Shown here: one piece after another, positions 40,839 to 56,996 of the stretch | Position numbering within the stretch: the stretch's first letter is position 1 | Layout of the letters: each line of letters opens with the position of its first letter | Sequence record: DRR378314_630 | Direction: 5' to 3' (one strand) | Length of the DNA: 56,996 bases | The notes under the pieces: model-generated | Told to the model about the DNA's origin: nothing | The model's database searches: none | Seen by the model: the letters and a program-made list of their open reading frames with translations, nothing else | Translations under genes and position numbers: made by a program

Positions 40839-40840
40839 CC

Positions 40841-41062
40841 GTGCCGTACGTCAATATCAAAGTCACCCGCGAAGGTGGCCCGGAGGGCAAAGGCCCGTCC
40901 GCTGAGCAGAAAGCGGAACTCATCGCGGGCGTCACCGACCTGCTTGTCAGAGTGCTGGACAAAAAACCATCCGCAACCATGGTTGTGATTGATGAAGTTG
41001 CATTGGAGGATTGGGGGATTGGGGGTCTTCCGGTGCCAGAGTATCGGGCGCGAAAACCCTAG
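40841..41062 (+). CDS. 4-oxalocrotonate tautomerase family protein
   Basis: GTG start then catalytic Pro1 (PYVNIK), QKAELI, WGIGG. Confidence 0.88.
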   Translation: MPYVNIKVTREGGPEGKGPSAEQKAELIAGVTDLLVRVLDKKPSATMVVIDEVALEDWGIGGLPVPEYRARKP

Positions 41063-41154
41063 GCAGCTGAGTTCAAAGCCGGTGCAAGGTTACTATCCCT
41101 GCGCCGGCATGTTCCACTGCACAAGAGTATGGGGGAATCCATCTGACTAAGTAG

Positions 41155-41484
41155 TCAGTCCACCACAAACAACTTCGCCCCTTGCTCGGTCGAAGACCGA
41201 TGAAGCTCTGCGTCATCCGCTACCTGGTAACTCGACCCAGGCTGGAGCAAAAAACAGCGTCCGTCTTTTAGCTCAGTGTGGAGCTCACCTTCCAGGCAAA
41301 GCAGAATGTGACCTTTGGCACACCAATGATCAGCCAGATAGCCGGGGCTGTACTCCACCATACGAACACGGATATCTCCGAAAGTGCGGGTCTGCCAATA
41401 GGCAGCCCCTTGTTCCCCGGCGTGTTCAGTCCTCTCAACTTCAGACCAGTCCGTAACTCCAAAGGGTAAATCCGATATCTTCAA
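41155..41484 (-). CDS. DHCW-motif cupin protein
   Basis: YLADHWCAKGH; TTG start at 41484 after AAGGAG. Confidence 0.85.
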   Translation of the reverse strand: MKISDLPFGVTDWSEVERTEHAGEQGAAYWQTRTFGDIRVRMVEYSPGYLADHWCAKGHILLCLEGELHTELKDGRCFLLQPGSSYQVADDAELHRSSTEQGAKLFVVD

Positions 41485-41535
41485 ACTGCTTCTCCTTAAG
41501 CAAGTAGTGGTTGGCATAGGCAGGCAGTACTCCTC

Positions 41536-42840: not shown

Positions 42841-43324
42841 GGATCACCTCCGGGTCTTCCCTGCCACGAAGGCGATCAACAAGGTTCTGGGTCATGCGGA
42901 TAATGATGGCAACGGATAGCAGAGGCAGCCAGATCACATAGATCCAGTTAGGCAGACCCAGCCCTGGTGACAATGACTCCCACTGATATTCCTGCAGTGC
43001 AAAAGTGCTGCCATACCAAGTCATGACCCCCAGGACTGTCACGCCACCGAGCCATTGCAGCACAAACACCACCTTTTGCGCCCAAGGCGGTAGGTAATGC
43101 TCTATCAACTCGATACGAATGTGCTGGTTGTGACGCGCAGCCACCGCAGCGCCTGCGAAGGTGAGCACCACCAGAAGGAACACCGAGAATTCCTCGGTAA
43201 AGGCGAATGAAGCATCCGTCGCGTAGCGCACGATCACGTTGCCCAAACTGATCAAACAGATCGCAACCAGGGCAATGGTGGCCAGCCAGGCATCGAGCCG
43301 GAATTTGGGGGGACGGGACGGCAT
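42830..43324 (-). CDS. dctQ: TRAP transporter small permease
   Basis: Four TM helices, TEEFS, HIRIE. Confidence 0.85.
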   Translation of the reverse strand: MPSRPPKFRLDAWLATIALVAICLISLGNVIVRYATDASFAFTEEFSVFLLVVLTFAGAAVAARHNQHIRIELIEHYLPPWAQKVVFVLQWLGGVTVLGVMTWYGSTFALQEYQWESLSPGLGLPNWIYVIWLPLLSVAIIIRMTQNLVDRLRGREDPEVIHES

Positions 43325-43345
43325 GGGAACTCCGGTTCGCAAAGA

Positions 43346-43369
43346 GCGCCCACCGGCAGCGGTGGGCGC
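43346..43369 (-). other. intercistronic hairpin between dctP and dctQ
   Basis: GCGCCCACCG-GCAG-CGGTGGGCGC perfect 10-bp stem. Confidence 0.6.
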
Positions 43370-43384
43370 CTGAACAGATCGCTT

Positions 43385-44395
43385 TTACTGATTACGGTTG
43401 GCGACCGCTTCCTGGGCTTGCTTGACCAGATCCTCGCCAATGCGCGGCGTCCACGTTTCGTATACCGACTTCGTGGCTTTCATGAAGGCATCGCGCTGCT
43501 CGTCAGTCAGTTCGGTGACCTCCACGCCCCGCTCCTTGATCGCAGCCAGGGTCGCATCGATTTCGCTACGGGATTTCTCAATCTCCCACTGGCCGGCATC
43601 AATCGCCGCCTGCTTCAGCAATTCCTGATCTTCCGGGCTGAACTGGTCCCAGATGCTGTTGCTGACCGCGAACACCAGTGGGTCTGCCATGTAGTGCCAG
43701 CGGGTCAGGTATTTCTGGCCAACCTGATCGATACGCGCCACATCAAAGACCGACAGCGGGTTTTCCTGGCCATCAACGGCACCGGTGGTCAGCGCCGGTT
43801 TGGCATCGGCCCAGCTCATCTGGGTGGGGTTGGCGCCCAAGGCCGTAAAGGTATCCTGGAACAGCGGCGAGCCAACAACGCGGATTTTCAGGCCATCCAG
43901 ATCGGCCGGTTCATCAATGGTCAACTTGGAGTTGGAGAGCTCACGGAAGCCATTCTCACCCCAGGCCAGTGGAGTAACACCACGCTTCTTGATCGCTGCA
44001 AAGACAGCCTCGCCAGCTTCGCCCTGGGTGATCGCATCAATGGCAGCATAGTCCGGCATCAGGAAAGGCAGGGAAAACAGGTTCAGTTCCGGCACCTGCG
44101 GCGACCAGTTGATGGTGGAACCCACCGACATATCGATCAGCCCGGAGCGCATGGCCGAAAACTCCTTGGTCTGGTCACCGGAGACCAGTTGGGAGTTGCT
44201 GTAGATCTTCATGTTGATACGCCCATCGGAGCGTTCTTTCACCAGCTCCACCCATTTATCCGCAGCCTGCCCCCATGGAAAGGCAGACGGCAGTACGGTG
44301 GACACCGTGTATTCATCCTTGTAGTCGGCCTGGGTAACGGCACTGAACAGCAGAGTAGCCGCCGCGGCAGCCAGGAGAGAGCGACGTTTCAACAT
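43385..44395 (-). CDS. dctP: TRAP transporter substrate-binding protein
   Basis: ENGFR, DLDGLKIRV, GAVDGQEN. Confidence 0.9.
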   Translation of the reverse strand: MLKRRSLLAAAAATLLFSAVTQADYKDEYTVSTVLPSAFPWGQAADKWVELVKERSDGRINMKIYSNSQLVSGDQTKEFSAMRSGLIDMSVGSTINWSPQVPELNLFSLPFLMPDYAAIDAITQGEAGEAVFAAIKKRGVTPLAWGENGFRELSNSKLTIDEPADLDGLKIRVVGSPLFQDTFTALGANPTQMSWADAKPALTTGAVDGQENPLSVFDVARIDQVGQKYLTRWHYMADPLVFAVSNSIWDQFSPEDQELLKQAAIDAGQWEIEKSRSEIDATLAAIKERGVEVTELTDEQRDAFMKATKSVYETWTPRIGEDLVKQAQEAVANRNQ

Positions 44396-44628
44396 GTGGT
44401 TTTCCTTTTTATTGGGATTGTGACGATCGCTGTGCCGCTGTCAGGCAGCGGACCAACAGGTGATTATAGAAACCGGGCTATCTGCGAGCAATAGACTAAG
44501 GTGGGAGAGACACTCACCTCAATGAAAGCGCAATGCAATACGGCTAAAGGATAATTGGTGCTACCCCAGGCTTTTCGTTTAGCTTGCCAGCAATAAAACA
44601 AGCCGACAAAAAAATAGTGGAGGACAAT

Positions 44629-45936
44629 GTGTTAGACAGGGCATCCAAACCGATGGTCAGCCTGGTAGACAAATACCTACCGGACCCGTATCTGTTCGTC
44701 ATCATTCTGACGCTGTTGTCATTCGTCGCAGCGATGGTATTCCAGAGCCATGGCCCCATGGCAGTGGTGGAAATGTGGGGGGACGGCTTCTGGAACCTGC
44801 TGACTTTCTCAATGCAAATGCTACTGGTGCTGGTCACCGGCTTTATGATGGCAAGCACCCCACTGGTGCGCGGTATCCTGAACCGCATTGCAGGCCTTGC
44901 CAGAACACCTGGCCAAGCCATCGTGCTGGTGACCTTCATCGCGCTGGTCGCCAGTTGGATTAACTGGGGCTTTGGCCTGGTGGTCGGCGCACTGTTCGCC
45001 AAGGCACTCGCCCGTCAAATCCGCGTACATTACCCGTTGCTGATTGCCAGCGCCTATTCCGGGTTCATTGTCTGGCACGGCGGGCTTGCCGGTTCCATCC
45101 CACTGACCATTGCCACCGAAAACCACTTCACAGCCGACGTCATTGGCGTGATCGGTACCAGCGAAACCATCTTCGCCTTCTTCAATCTGGCCATCGTCGC
45201 AGCGCTCTTTATTGTTGTGCCCCTGGTTAACCGCCTGATGCTGCCAGACGAAAGAGACAGCGTGTACGCAGATCCTAAAATTCTGGACGATGAGCCCGAC
45301 ACCTCCGTTGTAATCAATCGCCCGGCCGACTACCTGGAGAACAGCAGAACACTTGCCTGGCTGATCGGATTCAGCGGTATCGCCTTTATCTTCCAATACT
45401 TTATCGATGGCGGCGGGCTGAACCTGAACATCGTGAACTTCATGTTCCTGTTCGTTGCCATCATCCTGCACCAGACTCCCAAACGCCTGCTTGCCAGCCT
45501 GAATGAAGCCGTTAAAGGCGGCGCTGGCATCGTTATCCAGTTTCCGTTCTACGCCGGCATCATGAGCGTGATGACAGCCTCTGGACTGGCAGCGAGTATC
45601 TCAACGGGGTTTGTGTCTATTGCGAGTGCCGAAAGCCTGCCATTCTGGAGCTTTATCAGCGCCGGGGTAGTCAACATCTTCGTGCCGTCCGGCGGTGGCC
45701 AGTGGGCCGTTCAGGCACCGGTTATGCTGCCTGCTGCACAGGAGCTTGGCGCTGACATACCGAGAGTAGCCATGGGCGTCGCCTGGGGCGATGCCTGGAC
45801 CAACCTCCTGCAACCTTTCTGGGCTCTGCCAGTGCTGGCCATTGCCGGGCTGAAAGCCAAGGACATCATGGGCTACTGCCTGATGCTGCTGATCGTCACC
45901 GGCATCATCATCAGCGCAGGCCTGACCTGGCTGTAA
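44629..45936 (+). CDS. atoE: short-chain fatty acid transporter
   Basis: LPDPY, FSMQM, NWGFGLV, PSGGGQWAVQ, QPFWALP. Confidence 0.88.
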   Translation: MLDRASKPMVSLVDKYLPDPYLFVIILTLLSFVAAMVFQSHGPMAVVEMWGDGFWNLLTFSMQMLLVLVTGFMMASTPLVRGILNRIAGLARTPGQAIVLVTFIALVASWINWGFGLVVGALFAKALARQIRVHYPLLIASAYSGFIVWHGGLAGSIPLTIATENHFTADVIGVIGTSETIFAFFNLAIVAALFIVVPLVNRLMLPDERDSVYADPKILDDEPDTSVVINRPADYLENSRTLAWLIGFSGIAFIFQYFIDGGGLNLNIVNFMFLFVAIILHQTPKRLLASLNEAVKGGAGIVIQFPFYAGIMSVMTASGLAASISTGFVSIASAESLPFWSFISAGVVNIFVPSGGGQWAVQAPVMLPAAQELGADIPRVAMGVAWGDAWTNLLQPFWALPVLAIAGLKAKDIMGYCLMLLIVTGIIISAGLTWL

Positions 45937-45954
45937 TTGCCCACCCAAACGCTT

Positions 45955-45990
45955 GGCCGGAGAGTGTCGTTACTCTCCGGCCCTTTCTTT
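45955..45990 (+). terminator. rho-independent terminator after atoE
   Basis: GGCCGGAGAGT..ACTCTCCGGCC 11-bp stem followed by CTTTCTTT. Confidence 0.75.
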
Positions 45991-46023
45991 AGACACCCAT
46001 AAAAGCCACCGAAGCTATGCTCC

Positions 46024-46944
46024 TCAAGTGGCCAACGCGTAATCGATCGCCGCACACACCGCGGTAGCCTGCGCAGCGTTGCATTGCTCGGGAGTGACAC
46101 GGGGGCTGTCGGGATAGACCTCGGTGGTGGTCTTGAAGGGTGCGCTGGTAACACTGGCGCACAGGCCCAACTGCGTTAGCGGATACTGAATGACACCCCG
46201 AGCGGCCACTGGTGAGCCGAAGATCTCTCCGTTTTCATCGGCCGGAGCGATATGAGCAACCTGTTCCACCGCCTTGATCAACGCCTGCTGGAATTCAGGT
46301 TGGGGGTCCTCGCTGTCATCAACCAGATAGAATCCGTCGGGAATCCCGCCCGGTTCGAACGGCTTGCCATCCCGGGCAGCCAGCGCGGGGCGAAACTCGG
46401 TTTCGTCGGTATCCGTGGTCTCATGCAAATCGATATGCAGCAGCACACGATCAACGACGGGCGCGACCAGTCGCATCAGTGCCGCCGATTCCTCTGCCTC
46501 ACCGTCATCGCGGAATGAGCGGTTCGGATCGACCGCGTTGGCGTTCCAGCGATGGATGCGTTCGTACGCCCAAGGGCTGACGCAGGGCGCGACCAGCAAA
46601 TTAACGCGGCCCGCGTAATCCGCCGCATACTGATCAACGAACTCCAGCGCGCCGTGCACGCCGCTGGTTTCATAGCCATGCACCCCGCCCGTTACCAGCA
46701 CGACCGGCAGATTGTCACGCCATTCGCGGCTGCGAATCGCCATCAGCGAATAACGATCGGAGCCATACTCCAAACAGCCATACTCTTCCACGTCGAAGCG
46801 GGAGCGCAGGCGCTCGATCACACTCAACACCTCGGATTCGTAGCTGCGTTGACGGGTCTGCTGCGACAACCACTCGGCGCGTTCTACCTCACCCCAGGGA
46901 ATGCCAGGTGTGCCGATGGGATAGGATGCGGAATCCTTGGTCAT
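46024..46944 (-). CDS. M14-family metallocarboxypeptidase / deacylase-like
   Basis: GGVHGYE, DPNRSF, IDLHET, TTEVYP. Confidence 0.85.
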   Translation of the reverse strand: MTKDSASYPIGTPGIPWGEVERAEWLSQQTRQRSYESEVLSVIERLRSRFDVEEYGCLEYGSDRYSLMAIRSREWRDNLPVVLVTGGVHGYETSGVHGALEFVDQYAADYAGRVNLLVAPCVSPWAYERIHRWNANAVDPNRSFRDDGEAEESAALMRLVAPVVDRVLLHIDLHETTDTDETEFRPALAARDGKPFEPGGIPDGFYLVDDSEDPQPEFQQALIKAVEQVAHIAPADENGEIFGSPVAARGVIQYPLTQLGLCASVTSAPFKTTTEVYPDSPRVTPEQCNAAQATAVCAAIDYALAT

Positions 46945-47038
46945 ACTGCCTTTTCTCCAGTCATAATCGTTGTATACGCCGCTTTTGGAGGGAGGGAAGC
47001 TGCCGAATAGAAGCCCTACACAGCCTTGCCTGCGATCG

Positions 47039-47812
47039 TTAGATATGCTCTTCGGCCCTGAGTGTCAGCACCTCATAACCATCGGAGGTAACGGCCACTG
47101 TATGCTCCCACTGAGCCGACAACTTCTTGTCGCTGGTGACAACGGTCCACCCATCTTTCTTCAACTTAACCTTGGCCTTACCCTGGTTAATCATGGGCTC
47201 TATTGTAAACACCATGCCTTCCTGGAGGACCAACCCTTTTCCCCGCTGGCCATAATGCAGAACCTGTGGCTCTTCATGCATTTCTCGACCAATCCCATGC
47301 CCACAATACTCGCGAACAACTGAATAGCCGTGCTTCTGGGCGTGGCTTTGAATGGCATGGCCGACATCTCCAAGTGTGGCACCAGGCTTTACGCTTCGAA
47401 TCCCTTCCCACATGGCCTCATAGGTCTTGTCGACCAAGCGCCTGGCGACCGGAGTTACGTCGCCGATCATGTACATTTTGCTGGAATCAGCGATAAATCC
47501 GCCCTGCTCTAATGTGATATCAACGTTGATGATATCCCCGGATTTCAGCTTCTGAGCAGTCGAAGGAACGCCGTGGCATACAACCCGGTTTACAGAGCTA
47601 TTCAGAACATACTGATACCCATACTGACCTTTACTCGCAGGGCGAGCGTTCAGCTGATCGACGATGTACCTCTCCGCAAGATCGTTGATATCCATTGTGG
47701 ATACGCCGATCTCGATATGGCCATCGAGGTAGTCGAAAACCGTTGCGAGAAGCCGACCGGACTCCCGCATCACACTCAATTCCTCGGTGCTTTTCCGTTT
47801 TACACTAGCCAC
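47039..47812 (-). CDS. map: type I methionine aminopeptidase
   Basis: CHGVP, NVDIT..DSS, GHGIG..HEEP, TIEPM, AQWEHT. Confidence 0.95.
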   Translation of the reverse strand: MASVKRKSTEELSVMRESGRLLATVFDYLDGHIEIGVSTMDINDLAERYIVDQLNARPASKGQYGYQYVLNSSVNRVVCHGVPSTAQKLKSGDIINVDITLEQGGFIADSSKMYMIGDVTPVARRLVDKTYEAMWEGIRSVKPGATLGDVGHAIQSHAQKHGYSVVREYCGHGIGREMHEEPQVLHYGQRGKGLVLQEGMVFTIEPMINQGKAKVKLKKDGWTVVTSDKKLSAQWEHTVAVTSDGYEVLTLRAEEHI

Positions 47813-48011
47813 CGACAGCCTTCCTTATGTCTACTTCGGCCAGCTTCATTTGGTCGCGCATGATGTCGGAGAACGACATGCTGGGATTCGCCTCGGCAAG
47901 CATGCCAACTTTTATCCAATATTCAGCCTGAGCATTGATAGAGCGAACCATCACGGCACTTGCCTTGCGGATCTCCCCGTGTAATTCGTCGTCAATCTTA
48001 ACAATTCCCAT
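47805..48011 (-). CDS. ParD-like ribbon-helix-helix protein
   Basis: MGIVKI..RSINAQAEYWIKVG; overlaps map start. Confidence 0.8.
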   Translation of the reverse strand: MGIVKIDDELHGEIRKASAVMVRSINAQAEYWIKVGMLAEANPSMSFSDIMRDQMKLAEVDIRKAVGG

Positions 48012-48023
48012 AGCAGCCCTTTA

Positions 48024-48051
48024 ATATACGATTTGTATACGAATCATATAT
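48024..48051. promoter_or_regulatory. palindromic operator upstream of ParD-like gene
   Basis: ATATACGATTTGTA|TACGAATCATATAT, 12/14 inverted match. Confidence 0.6.
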
Positions 48052-48157
48052 CGCGAGCAGCAGCCATTCAAGATGGGTAGGTAGATCTGGCACCCCATTG
48101 CCGAAGTATCAATCGTTCCGTTCTAATCATGGTTCAGGTGGTGCCTTGGAAAGGGGT

Positions 48158-48193
48158 CATCACGCGCTTGTCGCGTGGATGGCGTTATTAGCT
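48158..48193 (-). repeat. degenerate, truncated attC remnant
   Basis: Minus strand AGCTAATAACGCCATCCACGCGACAAGCGCGTGATG resembles an attC left arm and loop; right core missing. Confidence 0.5.
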
Positions 48194-48651
48194 TCCGCTA
48201 TCTCATATTGGCTAAACACCTGGATATTATGCCGACGTAACAACGCAGCCGTAACACCCATGCCAGGAGTTCGGTTACCAGAAAAGCGACCGTCATAGAT
48301 AAATGAACTTCCACAAGAGGGGCTGGACTCGGCCAGTATCGCTATCTCAATACTGAACTTTTTGCACAATTCCAGAGCAATAGATGCACCTGCAATAAAA
48401 TCGTCGGTGACAACATTTCCGCCCTTTTCAATAACGTCGGATTCGCCGTCTAATACATTGTTCCCGCTTCCTTCGACAATCTCCGCAGGTTTCCGTGGGA
48501 TACTCATTCCGGCCTCAACTTCGGGGCATACTGAAACAACCCGGCCTTCAGATATCCACCTCTCAATAAGCTGATCGTTCACCGAAAGGCTCCCGCCATC
48601 GTATCGAACCCTTTTCCCTAGAAGGCAGGCACTCATTAGTACTTTTCTCAA
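48160..48651 (-). CDS. DUF523 / 2-thiouracil desulfurase-like protein (cassette)
   Basis: SACLLG..RYDG, VCPEV, SPSCG; TTG start at 48651 inferred. Confidence 0.85.
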   Translation of the reverse strand: MRKVLMSACLLGKRVRYDGGSLSVNDQLIERWISEGRVVSVCPEVEAGMSIPRKPAEIVEGSGNNVLDGESDVIEKGGNVVTDDFIAGASIALELCKKFSIEIAILAESSPSCGSSFIYDGRFSGNRTPGMGVTAALLRRHNIQVFSQYEIAEANNAIHATSA

Positions 48652-48674
48652 ACGAATAGACCCCAGTATTGTGG

Positions 48675-48724
48675 TGCTAAGTTTTCGAGTATTGGGACCG
48701 GTGCTACCACCGCGGTTGTTAAGC
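48675..48724 (-). repeat. degenerate attC
   Basis: GTTAAGC at 48718-48724 overlapping GNAT stop; mutated core TGCTAAG at 48675. Confidence 0.55.
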
Positions 48725-49210
48725 ATTTGACTCCAGGACATGACCCTGCAGATCAAGTCCATAGAATTTCGTTCCGGGCGTTGGGTTATAAAAATAGGGC
48801 TCGATTTCCTCAAAGCCCATTAACTCATAAAGTTCCTGCGCCTTTTTCGTAGGAGGCACGGCATCCAGAACGACTCGGGTATAACCCATTCCTTTCAGCT
48901 TCAATAGCAGATTGTCCATGAGCACACGTCCGAGTCCCTTACCCTGATATTGTCGACGTACGTACAGACGCTTCACCTCTGCTGTATGATCGTCAATCCG
49001 TCTAAACCCAACACCACCGGCGATGCGAGAATTCTCGATTGCGAATGTATATTGGCCGCTAGGCAGCGAGAACAGTGCTTCGAGCGAGGCCATCTCTCCC
49101 TCAAAATCCTGATAGGAAAGATCGATACCCAGCCAATCTGCATACTCGAGAATAAGCTTTCTTAGCTCATCGCTATCTGCGGGGAAGACCACATCCCTGA
49201 TCATAACCAT
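48719..49210 (-). CDS. GNAT acetyltransferase (cassette)
   Basis: AEVKRLYV..QGKGLGR, LYELMGF. Confidence 0.9.
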   Translation of the reverse strand: MVMIRDVVFPADSDELRKLILEYADWLGIDLSYQDFEGEMASLEALFSLPSGQYTFAIENSRIAGGVGFRRIDDHTAEVKRLYVRRQYQGKGLGRVLMDNLLLKLKGMGYTRVVLDAVPPTKKAQELYELMGFEEIEPYFYNPTPGTKFYGLDLQGHVLESNA

Positions 49211-49232
49211 CTCTTCCGTGCTTTAGACTATT

Positions 49233-49328
49233 GCTCGACACCTTTGTTTGGCAGCGCCCCTGTGGCTTAACGAAAAGGCATTCGGTGGAGGCCGGAGGCC
49301 CAAAACGTACTTGAGCGACCTGCTACAC
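49233..49328 (-). repeat. degenerate attC
   Basis: Shares CGGTGGAGG-CCG-AGGCCC with attC at 52624-52709; cores GCTTAAC (49265) or GCTCGAC (49233) and GCTACAC (49322). Confidence 0.65.
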
Positions 49329-49709
49329 ATTGACTGAATACTTAAGGTCCCGTGCCTCGTCTCCAGTCATACCCCGAAATCCCCAACAATGGGCAGGCTG
49401 CTCCTTAATTGTCACTTCGATATCTACAGGAGATATGCCAACCACAGACTCAATTTTTCTGAAAAGTTCCTTGATCAGAGCCTTTTGGGTCTCTGGAGCC
49501 CTCCCCTGCATCATATTGATCTCTATGGCAGTGTAGGCCGGAGTTCTGCCACCTGGGTAATAAAAATCCTCGGCATCCATAGGGATAAAACGATGAGCCC
49601 GCTTGTCTTCCGGCATTCCGAGTACGGATTGCATGCATCCGTGAATGACCTCAGAGAGCTGAGCTTTGACCGGGTTAAGGTGTTCTCTGATTCCATATAT
49701 GACTATCAC
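49323..49709 (-). CDS. tautomerase-superfamily protein (cassette)
   Basis: MQGRAPETQKALI..WGFRG; GTG start after GGAGG; lacks an N-terminal Pro. Confidence 0.8.
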   Translation of the reverse strand: MIVIYGIREHLNPVKAQLSEVIHGCMQSVLGMPEDKRAHRFIPMDAEDFYYPGGRTPAYTAIEINMMQGRAPETQKALIKELFRKIESVVGISPVDIEVTIKEQPAHCWGFRGMTGDEARDLKYSVNV

Positions 49710-49726
49710 GATGCCTCCTGCAATAT

Positions 49727-49762
49727 GTGTAACGCTCCCATAACTCAATTCGATAATTAAGA
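49727..49762 (-). repeat. collapsed attC remnant
   Basis: GTGTAACGCTCCCATAAC... joined directly to mutated core ATTAAGA; interior missing. Confidence 0.55.
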
Positions 49763-50227
49763 GATTTTATACTCCATGAATACAGCTTCTGGGTGAGGGT
49801 TGAACCGGTACGGCTCGATTTCCTGGAAGCCAAAAGCTTGGTACAACCGCAAGGCCTTATCAAGCTCACGAACGCTGTCGAGTCGCACAGAACCATAACC
49901 CATTTCCTTCGCCTGACAGATCAAAGCCTCAGTCAGAGCTTTACCGATACCCATGCCATGGTAGTCTGGCAAAACATACATCCGCTTCATCTCAGCAACT
50001 CCGGGCTCGAACTCTCTGAGGCCGACAGCACCAACACACACTCCCTCAAAAGAGCTCAGCAATAGCGCACCTTTGGGTGGACCGTACATTATTGGCAGCG
50101 ATGCCAACTCACTGGAAAAGCCCTGAAACTCCAAATCCAGCCCTAGAAATTCTGCATATGCACGAATCAACCTACCACCCAAATCAAACTGTTCGGCGGT
50201 CTCAGCCACCTCAATACTTACGGACAT
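49757..50227 (-). CDS. GNAT acetyltransferase (cassette)
   Basis: AEMKRMYV..HGMGIGK, LYQAFGF. Confidence 0.9.
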   Translation of the reverse strand: MSVSIEVAETAEQFDLGGRLIRAYAEFLGLDLEFQGFSSELASLPIMYGPPKGALLLSSFEGVCVGAVGLREFEPGVAEMKRMYVLPDYHGMGIGKALTEALICQAKEMGYGSVRLDSVRELDKALRLYQAFGFQEIEPYRFNPHPEAVFMEYKIS

Positions 50228-50234
50228 CCTTATC

Positions 50235-50300
50235 TCCTAACGCTGGCTTTTGCGGCTAACACGCAATGCTTCAGCCGCCGCCGTGACAGCGAGGCCAAGG
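50235..50300 (-). repeat. degenerate attC
   Basis: TCCTAACGC.. core and CGCCGTGACAGC arm similar to the intact attCs; end approximate. Confidence 0.55.
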
Positions 50301-50331
50301 GGCTCAAGACAAAGCTCTCGCAGTACTTCAC

Positions 50332-50400
50332 CCGGGTGCCAGAGAGTTCGTGCAAACGAAGACCGGGTAAGTCCATATCTTTAGCATTCGCCGCTGCATC
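50332..50400 (-). pseudogene. HigB/RelE-type toxin internal fragment
   Basis: Minus frame from 50400 reads [23 protein letters not shown]. Confidence 0.7.
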
Positions 50401-50540
50401 GCCTCAACTACTTTCCTACCAACACCTTTACCGTGTTGATCTGGGTGCACGAGTAGCTGATGGTAATACACTACCAAGCTACCGTCTGAAATTGCGTTAC
50501 CGAAGCTAATGAGCTCGCCATTAATCCTCGTGGTTACCAC
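50394..50540 (-). pseudogene. GNAT acetyltransferase internal fragment
   Basis: GNAISDG.LVVYY..LLVHPDQHGKGVGR without normal N- or C-terminus. Confidence 0.75.
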
Positions 50541-50940
50541 TCTCTACCACGCTCAGAAGGTGCAAACTAACAATTGCAAGCGCGGCTACAGCAACATTCG
50601 TTGACACAGGATTGAAGGCTGCCCCAAGCAGCATGGGCTGCATCAGAGCAACAAATGCCAGCAAGCCGATCATTGCAATCAATGTAACGACTATCGGCCA
50701 TCGCTGGCGCCAAAATATCAAGACAACAGCCGACATGGCGATCTCTAGTACGCCACCGATATTTGCCAACTGCAACGCACCTGCCGGTGAAAAGCCCGCT
50801 GCCATCCCCATGGCCAGTTCATCCTCATGCGGATAGAGCAGTTTCGGAATCAAGCCATGATAGAACCAAATAAAGGCGATAGCGCCACGGCAGACTGCAT
50901 AGCTAAAAAATGGGCTACTCGCCCAGGAACCTCGATTCAT
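50521..50940 (-). CDS. DoxX-like membrane protein (cassette, second gene)
   Basis: WFYHGLIPKL, AAFNPV; four TM helices. Confidence 0.75.
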   Translation of the reverse strand: MNRGSWASSPFFSYAVCRGAIAFIWFYHGLIPKLLYPHEDELAMGMAAGFSPAGALQLANIGGVLEIAMSAVVLIFWRQRWPIVVTLIAMIGLLAFVALMQPMLLGAAFNPVSTNVAVAALAIVSLHLLSVVESGNHED

Positions 50941-51352
50941 GATCTTTATCCGGAATCATACAAACGTCATAGCGACCGAAAAGCTTGTAACGATTTAGTG
51001 CGATGCGGTCGTAAAGCCAGTCCCGAATGACTGAGGGGACAACCCAGCCAATACAGAAAAGTGGCCACGGCCATGGTAACCGAAGCATTACTCTGAAAAA
51101 CGCTGAGGACTTCGTGTATATGTTGGGCCCTTCAGCAAGCAGCATGGTTTCGAATGAATCTGTTGGGAAACCATGCGATTCCAGAATGGCCTGGCCTTCA
51201 GGTGACTGAACAGTCGCCAACTTGAATCGACGCTTTCTATCGAACCTGATGAGGAAGCGCGCCCACGCGGAACACAATCGGCACACTCCGTCGAACAGGA
51301 CCACTCGATCCTCGGGGGCAATATCTGGTTTAGATTGCGATTGTTGTTTCAT
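50915..51352 (-). CDS. DCC1-like thiol-disulfide oxidoreductase (cassette)
   Basis: FDGVCRLC, RDWLYDRIALNRYKLFG. Confidence 0.9.
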   Translation of the reverse strand: MKQQSQSKPDIAPEDRVVLFDGVCRLCSAWARFLIRFDRKRRFKLATVQSPEGQAILESHGFPTDSFETMLLAEGPNIYTKSSAFFRVMLRLPWPWPLFCIGWVVPSVIRDWLYDRIALNRYKLFGRYDVCMIPDKDHESRFLGE

Positions 51353-51357
51353 AACTG

Positions 51358-51485
51358 AGGTAACGTCTACTTTAAAGCGCCGGTGCCGAACACAGCGAAG
51401 TACCGGCTGGTTTGGACGGTTGTTTATGTTTCACTCCGCTAAACGCGCCAGAGCATGCGCTTCCGCCAAGAATCTCGGGTTATGT
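51358..51485 (-). repeat. degenerate (possibly composite) attC
   Basis: Cores AGGTAAC (51358) and GTTATGT (51479); internal CCGGTGC..GTACCGG stem. Confidence 0.6.
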
Positions 51486-51489
51486 GATC

Positions 51490-51897
51490 CTAGCTTACTC
51501 TGGCAGGACCTCGAATTCTGGCACGTCTCCAATCGCCCCATCCCAAACCCGCTCTGCTCGATGTAAAGATGTGCGCAGTTGGCAACACAGAGACTTCAGT
51601 GTCCAAACACCCTGCAGGAACAACGAGCAAACCTGCAACCTGAGTGTTTGGCAATGCCGAGCCACACAACTTACAGAAGCTTTTGTTATGACGAGTGCCA
51701 GGGAGCGTAAAGGAAGTCACAGCATCTACACCCGACTGCCAGACCAATTTAGCTGACTGCGAGAATAAATTTGCCGCATGAGCTGATCCCGTATCTTTCT
51801 GACAATACTCACAATGACACAGGTAAAAGCTGTCGAAGTCCCCATGGACCTCAAATTTCACTGTGCCACACAGGCAAGAACCAACATGCTTAGTCAT
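51490..51897 (-). CDS. GFA-family (CENP-V) zinc-binding protein (cassette), probable C-terminal frameshift
   Basis: GSCLCG, CHCEYC, FCKLCGS, PTAHIF. Confidence 0.85.
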   Translation of the reverse strand: MTKHVGSCLCGTVKFEVHGDFDSFYLCHCEYCQKDTGSAHAANLFSQSAKLVWQSGVDAVTSFTLPGTRHNKSFCKLCGSALPNTQVAGLLVVPAGCLDTEVSVLPTAHIFTSSRAGLGWGDWRRARIRGPARVS

Positions 51898-51930
51898 AGG
51901 GTTCCCTGCTATGATCTGTAGGTGACGCAC

Positions 51931-51975
51931 ACATAACGCCCGGCTCACGCGCCGGTTTGAAGCCGTTGGCTATAA
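51931..51975 (-). repeat. attC with internal deletion
   Basis: ACATAACGCCCGGCTCACGCGCCGGTTTGAAGCCG nearly identical to attC at 54976, then jumps to mutated core GCTATAA. Confidence 0.8.
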
Positions 51976-52608
51976 GCCAATGTACCCCAAGGCCACATCG
52001 ACTTCTGTGTAATCCCGAATCGATTTAGGGCTAATAATACGATCCCCGACAGAAACAAAGTTGTAACCCAGAGTTTTGGAAGCTTTCTGATCCCAAGGCC
52101 CATCCCCAAAATAGGTCATGGAATCGTAATGACTCATACCCGCACGCCTTTCGGCCAACCGCATAATCTCTGTTCTGCTGTAGTGATCCGAGGAAGAGGC
52201 CAACGGTATAGAAGGGAAGGTGATACCTGCAGCACCAAGTTTCATCGTCGCGGATTCACTCCAGCCTCCGGTCGCAAAAGCGACTGCAACATTCTTGCGT
52301 GCAACGAGTTGCGATAAAAACTCGTACGCTCCGGGGATTGGGGATACAGCGTGACTCGAAATGTAATCCGTTACTCTGCTCACGAACTCTTCTTTAACGT
52401 CTGCGGTGATCCTCTCGCTGTCACTTTGAAGGCCTAGTCCATCAATCACCTCAGCGAGAATCCCTGAATCAGTCACATGATGATAGCGACTCCAGTCAGG
52501 CACGATCCTTACTCCCAATACGCCCTCGATAGCTGCTTGGAAGCACTCAGTATCGAAGTCGTACGACTCAACCAACGTTCCGTCTATGTCGAATAAGACC
52601 AGATGCAC
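51970..52608 (-). CDS. HAD-family hydrolase (cassette)
   Basis: FDIDGTL, ATGG, FGDGPWD. Confidence 0.9.
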   Translation of the reverse strand: MHLVLFDIDGTLVESYDFDTECFQAAIEGVLGVRIVPDWSRYHHVTDSGILAEVIDGLGLQSDSERITADVKEEFVSRVTDYISSHAVSPIPGAYEFLSQLVARKNVAVAFATGGWSESATMKLGAAGITFPSIPLASSSDHYSRTEIMRLAERRAGMSHYDSMTYFGDGPWDQKASKTLGYNFVSVGDRIISPKSIRDYTEVDVALGYIGL

Positions 52609-52623
52609 AACCTATCCCTTGGT

Positions 52624-52709
52624 TTATAAAGTGAAGCTAAGCGGCGCCCTGACAAGGGCGTCCGGTGGAGGACCGAAGGCCCGGAACAACCTTAATGGCC
52701 TGGTTATGC
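52624..52709 (-). repeat. attC (one core mutated)
   Basis: TTATAAA(52624)...GTTATGC(52703), internal hairpins CGCCCT/AGGGCG. Confidence 0.8.
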
Positions 52710-52717
52710 GGCATGCC

Positions 52718-53122
52718 CTATAGCCCGAGCAACTTTGATGCAATCGAATCAAAATGAATGCCGAGATAGAGCAAAGCTGAAAGATTAGCGAACAAAAGCG
52801 TTGGAACAAGCCAAAGAACTGCTGCAAGGCCCCCTTCGTGTAGGTAGATGAAGATTTGAAACATAAAAAGTCCAAGATAAAGATCTATTCCTATCTGCCT
52901 ACCCCAGTGAAACTCTGCAACCTTGCGAATGGTGCGAAATATGTTTTCCTGGAAACTACAGTAAACGCTATATGCTAGAAACGCTGCGAATGTCACCCAG
53001 ACGACAAGCTTTAAAATTCCCAATTGACCAGTGAATGAGAAAATATCGGGATGCCAATTCAGGTACAGGGCGGCGGCGGCAAATATCGAATAGACCGACC
53101 ATGAAATCGTGTTCGCCGACAT
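52718..53122 (-). CDS. hypothetical membrane protein (cassette)
   Basis: 134 aa, about four TM helices, GGAGG RBS; bounded by GTTATGC/GCATAAC. Confidence 0.75.
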   Translation of the reverse strand: MSANTISWSVYSIFAAAALYLNWHPDIFSFTGQLGILKLVVWVTFAAFLAYSVYCSFQENIFRTIRKVAEFHWGRQIGIDLYLGLFMFQIFIYLHEGGLAAVLWLVPTLLFANLSALLYLGIHFDSIASKLLGL

Positions 53123-53144
53123 TAGGTATATCCTCCTGTGTGCT

Positions 53145-53204
53145 GCATAACGTCAGAGCGCACCGGCGCACTTTAGTGCGTCCGCGTGACGCGACTTGTT
53201 AAAG
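53145..53204 (-). repeat. attC, classical 60-bp type
   Basis: GCATAAC..GCGCAC..GCACT-TT-AGTGC..GTGACGC..GTTAAAG. Confidence 0.92.
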
Positions 53205-53205
53205 C

Positions 53206-54963
53206 TCAAAACCATCTCAGATTCGCGAGAATCTCCTTTTGGTAGATTTCCGCAACTTCTTCAAACCTTTCGTAACTACCACCGAACATGCCTGCGCGTA
53301 TAGGCCCCCAATTATCTTTGAGTTGCGCGGCTTCGCTCCTAAGCTTTTGGAAAGGAGAAATACCAATTCTGCGACCTTTCCAGCCAAACCTCCCAACGGG
53401 TCCCCAGCAGTAACTATCATCTTGCTTTTTCAGGTCGGCCGTCACCAAAGCAAAAAGTATCTCAAACTCATCAAACACTCGTTCATACGCCTTACCTAAG
53501 AAAAACAAGTCATCGAGGCTGGGTTGAAGAAGTTTGTAAAGATATTCACTCATTGGTGTAAAGTTTCGCTCATGCTCGGGTACTCGTTTGAAAACATCAG
53601 AAAGCTCCCCTGCTGCATTGGCAACTTTTTGAACGAATAGTGGTTCACTACTCTCGTGAATTGGCAACCCTAGCTTGGTATAAAATATTGTTGAGAGACT
53701 CTTATAATTTTGCCTTTCAATCGCGGCTATGCCAGCGCTGTAAACCAAGAGTAAAAGGGGATACCACCTGAGATTCACCCAAGCTACAAGACCACCTTGA
53801 CTCTCTAAAAGCCTGTCGCATGATCTAGAGACAATTTTGGAAAGCGATTTCAGTTGATTGTCACTCGCCCAATGTGACAAGCAAGCTACTATTGCGGATA
53901 AGTCTTTGGTGTGGCTCTCATAAGCCGAGATCCGTTCCAATAATTCTTCGTCAGAAAACTTTCCATTCACTGCGAAATTATCTTCGCTTGTAGACGATAG
54001 GAAGCGCCTTACTTCCTCAATAACGTAATCGTGCAACTTTATTTGTGAGCTATCGGATGGAATCAATTCTTTGAGATATTCGACTTTTTCCTCAGTTGTA
54101 TGCGTATCCCTTACTTCATCTGCATATGGTATGGTAATCAGATCATCATTGTCAGTGGTGCCATCATCTGACTCTGACTCCGAGTCAGGGACGGTTATAA
54201 TGAAATCCCCGTCACCATCGAATTGGCCATAATGAGGTGTTTGCTCCGAGTTAATATCATTTGCAACTTTTGAATATACATAAGCCATCAAGCCACTGGC
54301 TGTTATGACCCCATACTCATTCGCCGCTTTGCCTCTTATCCCCTCAATGAAATGTCCCGTGAAAACTGAGTGTCCAGGCAAGGGCCCACCGGAGTCTGCA
54401 ACGACCTCATTTGCCTTTCCTGCGGTAATTACCTGTCTTGAGAAACGCTGGTACATATCTCTGAGAAATCTACTACTTCCGGGCTTCAGATCCCTATGAA
54501 CCGCCAACCCTCCGTAGCATGCGTCCATTACGAATAAAATATGCTTTGCGCGAATTAGCTCAGCATTCCGAGTAAGCTCATCCCACCTTATAAACGTGGA
54601 GAAGTCCTCCAAATCGGCATCATAGGGTACAAGATAACCTACCTCACCTCTGACTCCTGATCTGGTATGGCCGTGACCAGCAAAAAACACAAACAACCTG
54701 TCATCAACTTTGACGTCGTCATTTGAAAACCTCAAGAATGATCTTAATATATTTTCTCGCGTAGCTTCGCTATCAAGAAGATACGTTACATTGCTTTCGT
54801 CGAAACCCAGGTCATTTATTAATACCTCACCAATCTCTTTTGCATCATTAACCGCATATCCAAGTGGCGCTACTCTCTCATAGCGATTGATGCCAATAAC
54901 CAAGGCTCTGCTGGTCTCATATTTTTGCTGAAGAATGAACTTAATATCACGCACTCTCAACAT
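53206..54963 (-). CDS. caspase (C14)-domain protein with uncharacterised C-terminal domain (cassette)
   Basis: ALVIGIN.Y, AVNDA, FFAGHG and MDACYGG catalytic dyad, HSVFT; start approximate. Confidence 0.88.
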   Translation of the reverse strand: MLRVRDIKFILQQKYETSRALVIGINRYERVAPLGYAVNDAKEIGEVLINDLGFDESNVTYLLDSEATRENILRSFLRFSNDDVKVDDRLFVFFAGHGHTRSGVRGEVGYLVPYDADLEDFSTFIRWDELTRNAELIRAKHILFVMDACYGGLAVHRDLKPGSSRFLRDMYQRFSRQVITAGKANEVVADSGGPLPGHSVFTGHFIEGIRGKAANEYGVITASGLMAYVYSKVANDINSEQTPHYGQFDGDGDFIITVPDSESESDDGTTDNDDLITIPYADEVRDTHTTEEKVEYLKELIPSDSSQIKLHDYVIEEVRRFLSSTSEDNFAVNGKFSDEELLERISAYESHTKDLSAIVACLSHWASDNQLKSLSKIVSRSCDRLLESQGGLVAWVNLRWYPLLLLVYSAGIAAIERQNYKSLSTIFYTKLGLPIHESSEPLFVQKVANAAGELSDVFKRVPEHERNFTPMSEYLYKLLQPSLDDLFFLGKAYERVFDEFEILFALVTADLKKQDDSYCWGPVGRFGWKGRRIGISPFQKLRSEAAQLKDNWGPIRAGMFGGSYERFEEVAEIYQKEILANLRWF

Positions 54964-54975
54964 TCCTTTTGTATG

Positions 54976-55053
54976 CTTTAACGCCCGGCTCACGCGCCGA
55001 TTTGGAGCCGCGAAGCGGCGGAAAAACGGTCGCCGTGCAGCCGATTGTTAAGC
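54976..55053 (-). repeat. attC, 78 bp
   Basis: CTTTAACGCCCGGCTCACG..CCGC-GAA-GCGG..CGTGCAGCCGATTGTTAAGC. Confidence 0.93.
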
Positions 55054-55056
55054 CTT

Positions 55057-55905
55057 TTATCGCAATGGCCACACTTTCCTATTTTTTAGGAAGCTGTCAT
55101 CTACAGTATAGGTATAGAAATATTCTTCAATTCCGAAGAAGCCATCCACATTGTGTTGATGGCATGCGGTGCGGGCTATTCGCGATAGAACATCAGAGAG
55201 CCAACGAGCAATTGTTAATGCGTAGTACCTGCCGAGCCTCTGGACAATCTTATTTTGACCCGTTCGGATAGAGGCTGACTTCACATCCTGCATCATCCTT
55301 CCGCTTTCATCAGTTTGCCTCACCATGGAAATAGGGGACATGAAATAATCAATGACTTCGGCATTGGCTTCGACCCGTCGCTGTGACGATTTCCCATAAT
55401 AGTGCTGATGCAATATAGCTTCCGCCACCTCATCCCACCACTTCCCAATTGGCTCTTCACTTGAGAGATTCGGCTCATCTAGAGAAGCGAAATTCGCGTA
55501 CCGCCCTCTCCGAGCATCGGCGAATGCATCTAGGCACTCCAAAATTTTCCTACTAATCTGTGTATCTGGGCGCGTGTACCTGAGGCCCAAATCTCTTGTC
55601 TTGGAAACCGCATCAACTGCATTTGCAAGATCTAGCAACTTATGACCAAATTTACGCACTTCTTTTTCTTCAGGCATTCGGCCGTTATTATTTATCGCGT
55701 AATCGGCCACTAAAATTAACTTTGCGAGCCTTTCCAATCCAACTGAAAGCCCAAAAAACGCAGTGTAATACTCGCCCATTTGGTCAGCATAATTAGCTCT
55801 CCCTAAGGCCGTGGCACCTGAGCCAATCAAGTGCCTCACTAACGCAGCTTCTCGCCCTAGCGCGTGCCATTCTGGTATATCCCATGGATTTATATTTCTG
55901 TCCAT
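55057..55905 (-). CDS. hypothetical protein, HEPN-like motifs (cassette)
   Basis: GLERLAKL..GHKLLDL..GRYANF; ATG at 55905 after GAGG. Confidence 0.7.
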   Translation of the reverse strand: MDRNINPWDIPEWHALGREAALVRHLIGSGATALGRANYADQMGEYYTAFFGLSVGLERLAKLILVADYAINNNGRMPEEKEVRKFGHKLLDLANAVDAVSKTRDLGLRYTRPDTQISRKILECLDAFADARRGRYANFASLDEPNLSSEEPIGKWWDEVAEAILHQHYYGKSSQRRVEANAEVIDYFMSPISMVRQTDESGRMMQDVKSASIRTGQNKIVQRLGRYYALTIARWLSDVLSRIARTACHQHNVDGFFGIEEYFYTYTVDDSFLKNRKVWPLR

Positions 55906-55929
55906 TTCTTCCTCGAAGTTCCATATGAG

Positions 55930-56013
55930 GCTTAACGCTTGCAGCATGCGCGCCCATGAAATGGAGCCAAAGGCGCAATTGAATGGGCGTCGCCGTGCCT
56001 GCGCTTGTTAGAT
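55930..56013 (-). repeat. attC, 84 bp
   Basis: GCTTAACGCTTGCAGCATG..CGCCCAT..ATGGGCG..CGTGCCTGCGCTTGTTAGAT. Confidence 0.93.
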
Positions 56014-56029
56014 ATTTCAGATCCAAGAA

Positions 56030-56932
56030 CTACCATGTGAGGTCGTTCTCCAAAATGAGTGAGGGATCGATAAGGTCAATTCTGCGACAGAATCTATCAA
56101 GGTTTTCGGGGGCCTCGAATTTTATCTTAAAGGAAGGAGGCTCAACGGTGCCCTCCTTAATAGCCTTCGCGTCGATTGAAGCCAGTTGATCCAGAACACT
56201 AAGAAATTCATCGACGCCTTTACGAATTGGCCCGGCCCAGCAATGAGTCATTTCGTGAACTTCTTCAAAAGGCTCTGGCGGCACTATCTTGTGGCAGTCG
56301 ATCTCGAAATCTTTTAAGTGAAGATACAGGGCCGCCAACGCATCCACTTCGACTTGAAGTCGGCTGAGACCGCCTTCGTCTTTTACATCTCCAACGATGT
56401 TGGGAAGATCATGCGTGCAAAGAACGGATACAGAACGCAATAAACGTCTTATCGTATCGGGCCTACGCACTAGCCAGCTAAAATACTCTCGACCGTTTAA
56501 GTGGGTCGGCGATATAAAAGCGGCGCCACGTATCACTCGCTCAAGTTCAATTTCGGCGCGAGAGATACGGTCATCAAGCATTTGGCGGGTAATGGCCATA
56601 TTCCATCCACACCGCTGCTTCCGGAAAATTCGTTTTACCTCGGGAGATTCAGATTTGAGGGCGGCCGGCACATAATCTTTAAAACGGATATATGCCTTAA
56701 AGCCAATGGCTATCAACGAAATGGCCAATATGGGCGCTGCGAAATTTGCTACCGGTGCACGATTTCCAACGGCAGCCATAATCACCTCTGCTAGAGCCCA
56801 CAGCGATATCACGAGCGCTGCAAAAGTTGGGGCTTCAGGGGGCAAAAATCTTAAGTATTCCAGCGCAGCCTCATACCATCGCTTCTCAGAGAACTCGATC
56901 TTGTGCTCGCCTGAATACTGTCCATCACCCAT
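56030..56932 (-). CDS. hypothetical protein with two N-terminal TM helices (cassette)
   Basis: ATG at 56932 after GGAGAG; fills the cassette bounded by GTTAGAT/ATCTAAC. Confidence 0.75.
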   Translation of the reverse strand: MGDGQYSGEHKIEFSEKRWYEAALEYLRFLPPEAPTFAALVISLWALAEVIMAAVGNRAPVANFAAPILAISLIAIGFKAYIRFKDYVPAALKSESPEVKRIFRKQRCGWNMAITRQMLDDRISRAEIELERVIRGAAFISPTHLNGREYFSWLVRRPDTIRRLLRSVSVLCTHDLPNIVGDVKDEGGLSRLQVEVDALAALYLHLKDFEIDCHKIVPPEPFEEVHEMTHCWAGPIRKGVDEFLSVLDQLASIDAKAIKEGTVEPPSFKIKFEAPENLDRFCRRIDLIDPSLILENDLTW

Positions 56933-56944
56933 AGGCTCTCCAGA

Positions 56945-56996
56945 ATCTAACGCCTGGCTCACGCGCCGGTTTGGAGCCGCGAAGCGGCGGAAAATC
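56945..56996 (-). repeat. attC (cut by window edge)
   Basis: ATCTAACGCCTGGCTCACGCGCCGGTTTGGAGCCGCGAAGCGGCGGAAAA nearly identical to attC at 54976. Confidence 0.9.

Follow-up and report, generated by a model that had tools for sequence, protein, structure and literature searches.

What is a gene for a caspase-like protease doing in an integron cassette, and could it serve its host as a phage defence? The question is raised by an open reading frame (ORF) on the minus strand at 53206..54963 of sequence record DRR378314_630, a stretch of 56,996 nucleotides (nt) that we analysed as a whole and call the window. The gene encodes a metacaspase-like C14 protease, followed by an acidic linker of about 41 amino acids (aa) and an all-helical C-terminal domain of about 300 aa, and this single ORF fills an integron gene cassette at 53151..54981. 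Judged from the sequence, it is a good candidate for a one-gene anti-phage defence. We put the chance at slightly better than even that the protein is a single-chain sensor or switch joined to an Arg/Lys-cleaving caspase executioner, which would defend against phage by abortive infection. The structure of the locus and of the protein is secure; the function is what we infer.

The ORF is intact and comes to 585 aa when counted from its ATG. Because the homologues P0003 and P0007 begin with MRDLKF, the start codon is probably the GTG at 54954, giving a protein of 582 aa; an alternative longer start, GTG 54993, would extend into the attC site of the preceding cassette. The protein is laid out as follows.

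53206..54963, minus strand: coding sequence, 585 aa from the ATG; probable start GTG 54954, 582 aa
54232..54912, minus strand: Peptidase C14 (metacaspase-like) domain, residues 18-244; Pfam E 1.3e-18
54673-54675, minus strand: codon of the catalytic His97, in AGHG
54517-54519, minus strand: codon of the catalytic Cys149, in DACYGG
54076..54198, minus strand: acidic linker, poor in Lys and Arg, residues ~256-296, partly predicted disordered
53209..54105, minus strand: all-helical C-terminal module of the PDC-S65 type, residues ~287-585; match to PADLOC

The dyad motifs AGHG and DACYGG lie at residues 95-98 and 147-152, and the translation also contains DSESESDDGTTDNDD, FTPMSEYLY, YERVFDEFE and WGPVGRFGWK. 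An AlphaFold model of the full-length protein has a mean predicted local distance difference test (pLDDT) of 88.9 and a predicted template modelling score (pTM) of only 0.62, a combination indicating that both domains are well folded and that their orientation relative to each other is uncertain.

The N-terminal part belongs to the C14 family by its Pfam score, its His-Cys dyad and its fold. PF00656 (Peptidase_C14) matches residues 18-244 at E 1.3e-18, with 68 bits against a cutoff of 21.4. When the window protein was aligned with its full-length homologues (51 sequences, 35-92% identity to it), His97, Cys149, Asp40 and Asp147 were each invariant in 51/51. In phmmer comparisons with solved structures, His97 and Cys149 align with the metacaspase SGHG and DSC (DSCHSG) motifs, and Asp40 and Asp147 with the Asp of the ND and DSC motifs. 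The predicted model has a caspase-type alpha/beta fold according to Foldseek, which placed Yca1 first (E 4.5e-9); the top solved neighbours, at E 4.5e-9 to 1e-7, were Yca1, the C. glabrata metacaspase MCA1, MALT1 and Arabidopsis metacaspases including AtMC9, with GSU0716 also listed. With its catalytic and S1-pocket residues intact, the protease looks active. In metacaspases, two conserved Asp residues of the pocket predict cleavage after Arg or Lys, and since Asp40 and Asp147 are conserved here, the same preference is predicted for the window protein.

The fold, the dyad and both acidic pocket residues match those of the metacaspases, bacterial caspase homologues and MALT1 (clan CD, family C14). 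Sequence identity to metacaspases and MALT1 is only 12-19%, however, and their regulatory parts (Ca2+ loops, immunoglobulin or death domains) are replaced in the window protein by the helical module. The NCBIfam model of the EACC1-associated caspase, NF047832, scored 76.7 bits, under its curated cutoff of 140, and the CHAT domain was matched in three homologues, below its cutoff only. Relatives of the caspase domain itself, with 41-45% identity over residues ~10-260, occur in most of the loci L046-L059 (L048, L054 and others), in Bacteroidota, Kryptonia and other metagenome-assembled genomes (MAGs). Both genomes checked from this set have the caspase domain without the helical domain, so that the caspase has other C-terminal partners too.

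Between the two domains, residues 256-296 carry 14 Asp or Glu against 2 Lys or Arg, and in the full-length model pLDDT drops under 50 over residues 262-270. The sequence of the linker differs among the 51 homologues but is always acidic and poor in Lys and Arg (mean 22% Asp/Glu, 5.8% Lys/Arg), a composition that would fit protection from self-cleavage.

The C-terminal domain is the less familiar half. The last 306 residues of the protein, modelled from an alignment with 53 stand-alone relatives, are predicted to form a bundle of 16 helices and helices only, with a mean pLDDT of 94.9, and the conserved motifs of the domain are WYP..GIAA, SEYL, YE..FD.FE and WGP.GRF.WK. Searched alone with phmmer against clusters at 50% identity, the domain found 2029 at E<=1e-3, 1193 at <=1e-10 and 269 at <=1e-30. 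No Pfam family matched it at E<=1 and none was common to the 54 members of the stand-alone alignment; NCBIfam and PHROGs returned nothing for it, and the PDB sequence search returned metacaspases only, through the N-terminal domain. No informative solved fold and no structural relative of the domain was found. A two-copy complex prediction of the domain, run without controls, scored 0.00 against a mark of 0.32, which speaks neither for nor against self-association.

The match that does inform comes from PADLOC, where the domain corresponds to the C-terminal half of both PDC-S65 models: PDLC05061 (E 1.7e-49, profile positions 301-586 of 592) and PDLC05060 (E 7e-31, positions 209-490 of 503). 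Positions 1-300 of the former and 1-208 of the latter are unmatched. A typical PDC-S65 protein consists of SIR2_2 and this domain; the window protein shares the homologous C-terminal ~290 residues and carries a caspase where PDC-S65 has SIR2, which means that each model is matched over one half only and that the full-length PDC-S65 architecture is absent. Both are single-gene units that occur sporadically on mobile DNA. An earlier note on this stretch had described the ORF with the motifs listed above, an N-terminal C14 caspase with an intact His-Cys dyad, an acidic linker and a helical C-terminal region of ~300 aa. Each part of that description was borne out, by the translation, by the Pfam score and the invariant dyad, by the excess of acidic residues and its conservation, and by the helices-only model; the PADLOC search that it recommended is what led to PDC-S65.

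Is the caspase the only enzyme attached to this domain? It is not. Pfam was run on 42 of 150 listed representatives, the list being the top 150 ranked by likeness to the caspase form. Peptidase_C14 was found in nine of the 42, Pkinase in four (P0147, P0159, P0192, P0252), TIR_2 in two (P0193, P0269) and ParA-like CbiA/AAA_31 in two (P0251, P0255). The TIR of P0193 matches the Thoeris ThsB model (E 4.9e-65), the kinase fusions match PD-T4-6 models through their kinase domains, and the ParA-like parts match PDC-M28B. Whole-genome searches with a profile of the stand-alone alignment added SIR2_2 fusions (L067, L068 and L069; L076 is another), and a third genome sample gave four more SIR2 fusions (L078-L081, by blastp) and one kinase fusion. 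Both PDC-S65 models are matched over their full length by L067 and L068, with scores of 411-712 bits (best 712 and 666), from which it follows that PDC-S65 proper is SIR2 plus this C-terminal domain. A fusion to Schlafen AlbA_2 lies on a Mycolicibacterium plasmid (L074), and three other plasmids encode proteins with a SIR2-family annotation, which Pfam confirmed as SIR2_2 for one of the three. The SIR2 form L069 (602-2469) looks broken, being split into ORFs of 169 and 457 aa.

Clustering by blastp sorted 143 proteins with a complete domain into 68 stand-alone, 58 caspase, 4 kinase, 3 ParA-like, 3 SIR2 and 2 TIR forms, 4 with a short extension and 1 unexplained (P0148), shares that are biased because the list was ranked by likeness to the caspase form. 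Apparently new N-termini of 110-210 aa (P0124, P0139 and others) were considered as extra effector types and rejected; they join the caspase group and are therefore probably truncated gene calls. A quick maximum-likelihood tree of the domain shows the N-terminal types intermixed, the labels needing 46 changes where the minimum is 7. When well-supported branches alone are counted, caspase still needs 11 changes, stand-alone 15, kinase and ParA 3 each, and TIR and SIR2 2 each, counts that truncated gene calls could inflate for the stand-alone and caspase classes. The earlier note had suggested a similar C-terminal region behind SIR2 and TIR effectors, and such proteins exist (SIR2_2 in L067 and L068, TIR_2 in P0193 and P0269). 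Its further suggestion of a sensor with swappable effectors stands as far as the swapping goes, which both the fusions and the tree support; the sensing half of it is a role that the modular use of the domain suggests.

The stand-alone forms raise the possibility that the roles are the other way round: the helical domain could be an autonomous core, an enzyme or effector in its own right, which the N-terminal caspase, SIR2, TIR or kinase regulates or reinforces. Defence would still be possible with sensor and effector reversed in this manner. Besides their share of the complete-domain representatives, one ESM Atlas cluster of 293-aa proteins has 1260 members, and the polar residues of the FD.FE and GRF motifs are invariant in stand-alone and fused sets alike: E501, G524 and R525 are invariant and D498 nearly so among the 51 fused homologues, and D498, E501 and G524 are invariant and R525 nearly so in the stand-alone set (P0001 numbering). 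We regard this reversal as unlikely.

Genomic context for a stand-alone copy was obtained once. In L085 (6799-8865) a stand-alone domain of 291 aa follows, 3' and on the same strand after a gap of 25 nt, a 388-aa gene of DUF4062, a name taken from precomputed Pfam results on its relatives. This DUF4062 family counts over 430 relatives with a length near 389 aa, and two other members (L089, L090) have no stand-alone domain neighbour within about 1.5 kb. Viral scans for stand-alone forms found nothing, and the single locus that a metagenome scan returned proved to be a caspase fusion. In L083/L084 a single domain copy lies in two pieces.

How is the gene distributed? Full-length caspase forms with 42-92% identity occur in Gamma- and Betaproteobacteria, Desulfobacterota, Chloroflexota, Paenibacillus, Planctomycetota, Acidobacteriota and Gemmatimonadota, among others, and across phyla the identity of the caspase form is 42-55%. 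The C-terminal domain is rare, at about 1% of sampled genomes: of 400 other genomes from the phylum of G001, 2 contained it, as did 3 of 399 from the class of G001 (one further genome was unscored) and 7 of 401 in a second phylum sample. The caspase form is also borne on cassettes in several gammaproteobacterial loci, and the domain is found on plasmids. Two viral contigs from IMG/VR carry the caspase form inside modules of structural genes; in the Mu-like L072 it has a virion morphogenesis gene on one side and the protease and head genes on the other, and in L073 it lies between the genes of the small terminase subunit and the portal, with an unannotated ORF directly upstream. Defence genes carried by phages typically sit at such places among the structural genes of prophages. 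When 50,697 phage records were searched with the domain by tblastn, none matched.

These observations bear on whether the protein might be an ordinary regulatory or housekeeping protease outside any genetic conflict. Bacterial caspase homologues are numerous and mostly uncharacterised, according to the study of type IV Thoeris (10.1101/2024.10.24.620036), which leaves some room for such a role. Against it stand the presence of the domain in so few genomes, its spread across phyla at the identities just given, its carriage on cassettes and phages and the use of the same module with SIR2, TIR and kinase domains, and we consider it very improbable.

The neighbourhood of the gene was scanned in 26 of 59 loci, those with a near-complete match and flanks, taking the three nearest ORFs on each side, 147 ORFs in all. 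No recurrent partner family was found among them, and no TIR, gasdermin, cyclase or type III CRISPR genes. With one ORF filling the cassette and no partner that recurs, the gene is a single-gene unit. This sets it apart from the gasdermin-associated and CRISPR-associated (CHAT) caspase-like proteases, whose partner genes are absent from these neighbourhoods. Transposase, integrase or phage structural genes adjoin five loci (L002, L003, L009, L016, L024), and parts of toxin-antitoxin systems adjoin three (L017, L026, L031).

Such surroundings could also point to a role in conflict or stress outside phage defence, for example as an addiction-like stabiliser of the mobile element that carries it, a stress-triggered death gene or an anti-plasmid device. 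Carriage on cassettes, phages, plasmids and regions flanked by insertion sequences (IS) would suit this, as would the few known defence genes nearby and the toxin-antitoxin parts at the three loci just named. An antidote-like gene, on the other hand, is not conserved beside it, the fused effectors are of anti-phage types (ThsB-like TIR, PD-T4-6-like kinases, pAgo-type SIR2), and the place among prophage structural genes is the one expected of phage-carried defence genes. On these grounds a non-phage conflict role seems improbable to us.

Three further observations concern individual copies of the caspase form. A caspase gene in a Sedimenticolaceae MAG (L002, 9632-12504) is interrupted near residue 547 by Mutator-family (IS256-like) transposase genes, and the final 123 nt of homology resume 2.7 kb downstream. 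The Pseudoalteromonas luteoviolacea form (L014, 8001-9751) also looks broken, being split into ORFs of 390 and 190 aa. DUF4238 proteins adjoin the caspase gene in two unrelated MAGs (L012 6961-7866, L036 10181-11134).

A functional parallel is the caspase-like effector of type IV Thoeris, whose C-terminal domain is likewise unexplained and which works with an adjacent TIR gene. Rousset et al. describe the protease as a promiscuous Arg-specific executioner, and a role as receptor of a nucleotide-type signal has been proposed for its C-terminal domain (10.1101/2024.10.24.620036). The same specificity is predicted for the window protein from Asp40 and Asp147. In type IV Thoeris, however, the effector shares a two-gene operon with a TIR that produces the signal, and no adjacent TIR gene was present in the flanking cassettes of the window or in the 26 homologous loci. 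The C-terminal domain of the window protein might still be the receptor of a nucleotide-type alarm signal made elsewhere in the genome, with the cassette gene as an orphan effector, and a domain with invariant polar residues would be suited to that task. This is made quite improbable by the lack of a TIR or cyclase gene among the 147 neighbouring ORFs or in the flanking cassettes, by the movement of the cassette as one gene, and by the existence of a TIR fused to the same domain, which would be odd for the receptor of a TIR-made signal.

For the cassette itself, attC sites were established by direct reading, folding, repeat finding and homology end-points.

46945..56996, minus strand: integron cassette array with at least nine attC-like sites; all cassettes have the same direction, and the array leaves the window at its right end
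54976..55053 (about), minus strand: attC of the preceding cassette; R'' GCTTAAC, R' GTTAAAG
53151..54981, minus strand: caspase gene cassette, from G/TT of the upstream R' to the G of its own R'
53145..53205 (about), minus strand: attC of the caspase cassette itself; R'' GCTTTAAC, R' GTTATGC

The R' GTTAAAG of the upstream attC gives the 5' junction of the caspase cassette. The bottom strand of this attC folds into a bulged hairpin (folding energy -23.4, z -2.87), which none of 200 shuffles matched, and a 96%-identical copy of the site lies at 56948-56994. That of the cassette's own attC does likewise (-15.8, z -2.47), with 3 of 200 shuffles folding as well. At the 5' junction stands GTTAAAGC, which corresponds exactly to the reverse complement of the R'' of the cassette, GCTTTAAC; a unit that had earlier been circular, with its attC as the point of closure, would be expected to show this. 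When the last 11 kb of the window was compared by blastn with the 59 homologous loci, a locus in a Halomonas MAG (L001, 89% nt identity) showed homology only over 54985..53148, end-points within 4 nt of the predicted cassette at each end. Among 13 homologous loci read by eye, eight have cassette-type junction motifs, intact on both sides in L003, L005 and L007 and one-sided or degenerate in L001, L004, L008, L013 and L014; they are absent from L009, L011, L066, L072 and L073. The junctions of L003, L005, L007 and L014 are laid out like those of the window cassette.

The GC fraction is 0.41-0.47 over 53350-54999, ~0.48-0.53 in neighbouring cassettes and 0.59-0.64 at 46000-46900, and at about 46.9 kb it steps from ~0.6 in the core genes on the left to ~0.5. 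Sub-families of attC recur within 46.9-57.0 kb (51934/54979/56948, 47023/55992, 49274/52654, 55029/55989). The AT-richer cassette with two intact attC sites that the earlier note had reported is thus present in both respects. No integrase lies within the window, whose end at 56996 cuts the array, and an Rfam scan of 40000-56996 returned no matches.

Integron cassettes have been reported to encode phage defence (10.1101/2024.07.02.601719; PMC12614218), and the window gene resembles such cassettes in being a compact single ORF within an array. No mention of a caspase was found in the available portions of the integron-defence and cassette-survey papers, and papers on the modularity of defence systems refer to caspases as parts of different systems only; the literature searched yielded no description of the caspase form. 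The layout of the protein has known counterparts. Avs/STAND receptors, DSR-type sirtuins and PD-T4-6 kinases follow a like logic, with one polypeptide, an N-terminal effector and a large helical C-terminal part, and their effector repertoire (SIR2, TIR, protease, kinase) is that of the C-terminal-domain family.

How might the protein work? What is secure is how the cassette is built and how the domains of the protein are arranged, that the catalytic and S1-pocket residues are intact, and that the C-terminal domain is reused as a module and carried by mobile elements. One conserved module behind many enzymes that serve known anti-phage systems as effectors or signal makers, in a single gene that travels on cassettes, phages and plasmids and that about 1% of genomes possess, is what characterises a one-protein defence built of a sensing or switching part and an exchangeable killing part. 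In the mechanism that we propose, a promoter-less cassette would carry one gene for a two-domain conflict protein, in which a flexible acidic linker ties the N-terminal protease to the helical module. The module would be the sensing or switching part and would hold the effector silent pending an infection cue, which might be a phage protein or a small molecule linked to infection. Once the cue is met, the module would release or cluster the protease, and this could then cut host proteins, phage proteins or both, so that phage growth would be stopped and the infected cell lost. We infer activation by clustering, the range of substrates and the anti-phage outcome; the sensor role of the helical domain is suggested by its modular use.

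Several points weigh against this mechanism. Stand-alone domains are common (68/143), and a copy that only senses, with no effector of its own, would depend on a partner acting in trans. The invariant polar residues D498, E501 and R525 fit a fixed ligand-binding or catalytic site better than a fast-evolving sensor of phage proteins. At PADLOC E<=1e-10, clear defence neighbours occur in only two of the 26 loci, L019 (PDC-S31) and L026 (type II restriction-modification), a raw count; neighbour matches at L031 and L043 are doubtful. An enrichment of homologues near defence genes, a point raised in the earlier note, did not emerge from these counts. The SIR2 form is listed by PADLOC as a defence candidate, and that status is itself a prediction, the PDCs being described as '145 untested phage defence candidates' found by 'guilt by embedding' (10.1101/2024.01.29.577857). 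The literature searched yielded no mention of 'PDC-S65'. Finally, no promoter-like site was found upstream of the gene on the coding strand, so that its expression here would depend on read-through.

Should the gene defend against phage, a caspase-armed member would be added to a family known only as a database candidate, and a compact system of 582 aa would be at hand for studying how a bacterial caspase is activated when no TIR, CRISPR or gasdermin partner takes part. The gene would in addition provide a tangible example of one defence gene exchanged between integron arrays and prophages. Identifying the cue of the C-terminal domain, which has 2029 clusters and no Pfam entry, would explain a whole set of single-gene systems. 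A broader proposal, which we make tentatively and consider rather doubtful, is that the helical domain is a new and widespread immune switch with a fold unlike solved structures. Without an NTPase or second messenger, and in response to one conserved infection cue, it would arm either a partner encoded by another gene or any of at least six unrelated effector classes (caspase, SIR2, TIR, kinase, ParA-like ATPase, Schlafen). If this were true, bacterial immunity would have a further general receptor module with a reach comparable to that of the SAVED, CARF and STAND sensors, and integron cassettes and phage genomes would be among the vehicles of this switch.

Other observations concern integrons and the rest of the array. 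The Halomonas copy in L001 has degenerate junctions (100-160 and 1908-1975), with ATT for GTT upstream and AAA for AAC in R''. No integron integrase scored above cutoff in that MAG, and the copy may be a stranded cassette. The integrase IntI scored above cutoff in five of ten genomes with close homologues, in none of which it was shown to adjoin the gene, and a recombinase adjoining the L002 copy, considered as an IntI, did not score as one.

Elsewhere in the array (46945-53122, minus strand) lie small genes typical of cassettes, namely those for a 134-aa membrane protein of no known family, a HAD hydrolase, GFA, a tautomerase, an M24 peptidase, two GNAT acetyltransferases, a 2-thiouracil desulfurase-like protein and a DCC1-like oxidoreductase that overlaps a DoxX-like gene; none of these array genes has a PADLOC match. 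The two upstream cassettes (55057-55947 and 56030-56962, minus strand) encode proteins of about 282 and about 300 aa, without a match in Pfam, PADLOC, NCBIfam or PHROGs; the former resembles only 'hypothetical protein' clusters in the ESM Atlas. Because the attC R' falls inside the longest ORF of each of these cassettes, the true starts must lie downstream, for the 55057-55947 protein probably at MDRNINPW. A 70-aa ORF at 50328-50540 (minus strand), inside a 293-nt 'intergenic' stretch, aligns with GNAT acetyltransferases in their middle part alone and probably derives from a cassette that has decayed. A 347-nt spacer at 47813-48159 (minus strand) holds a short ORF that starts MGIVKIDDELH, which we take to resemble ParD-like antitoxins.

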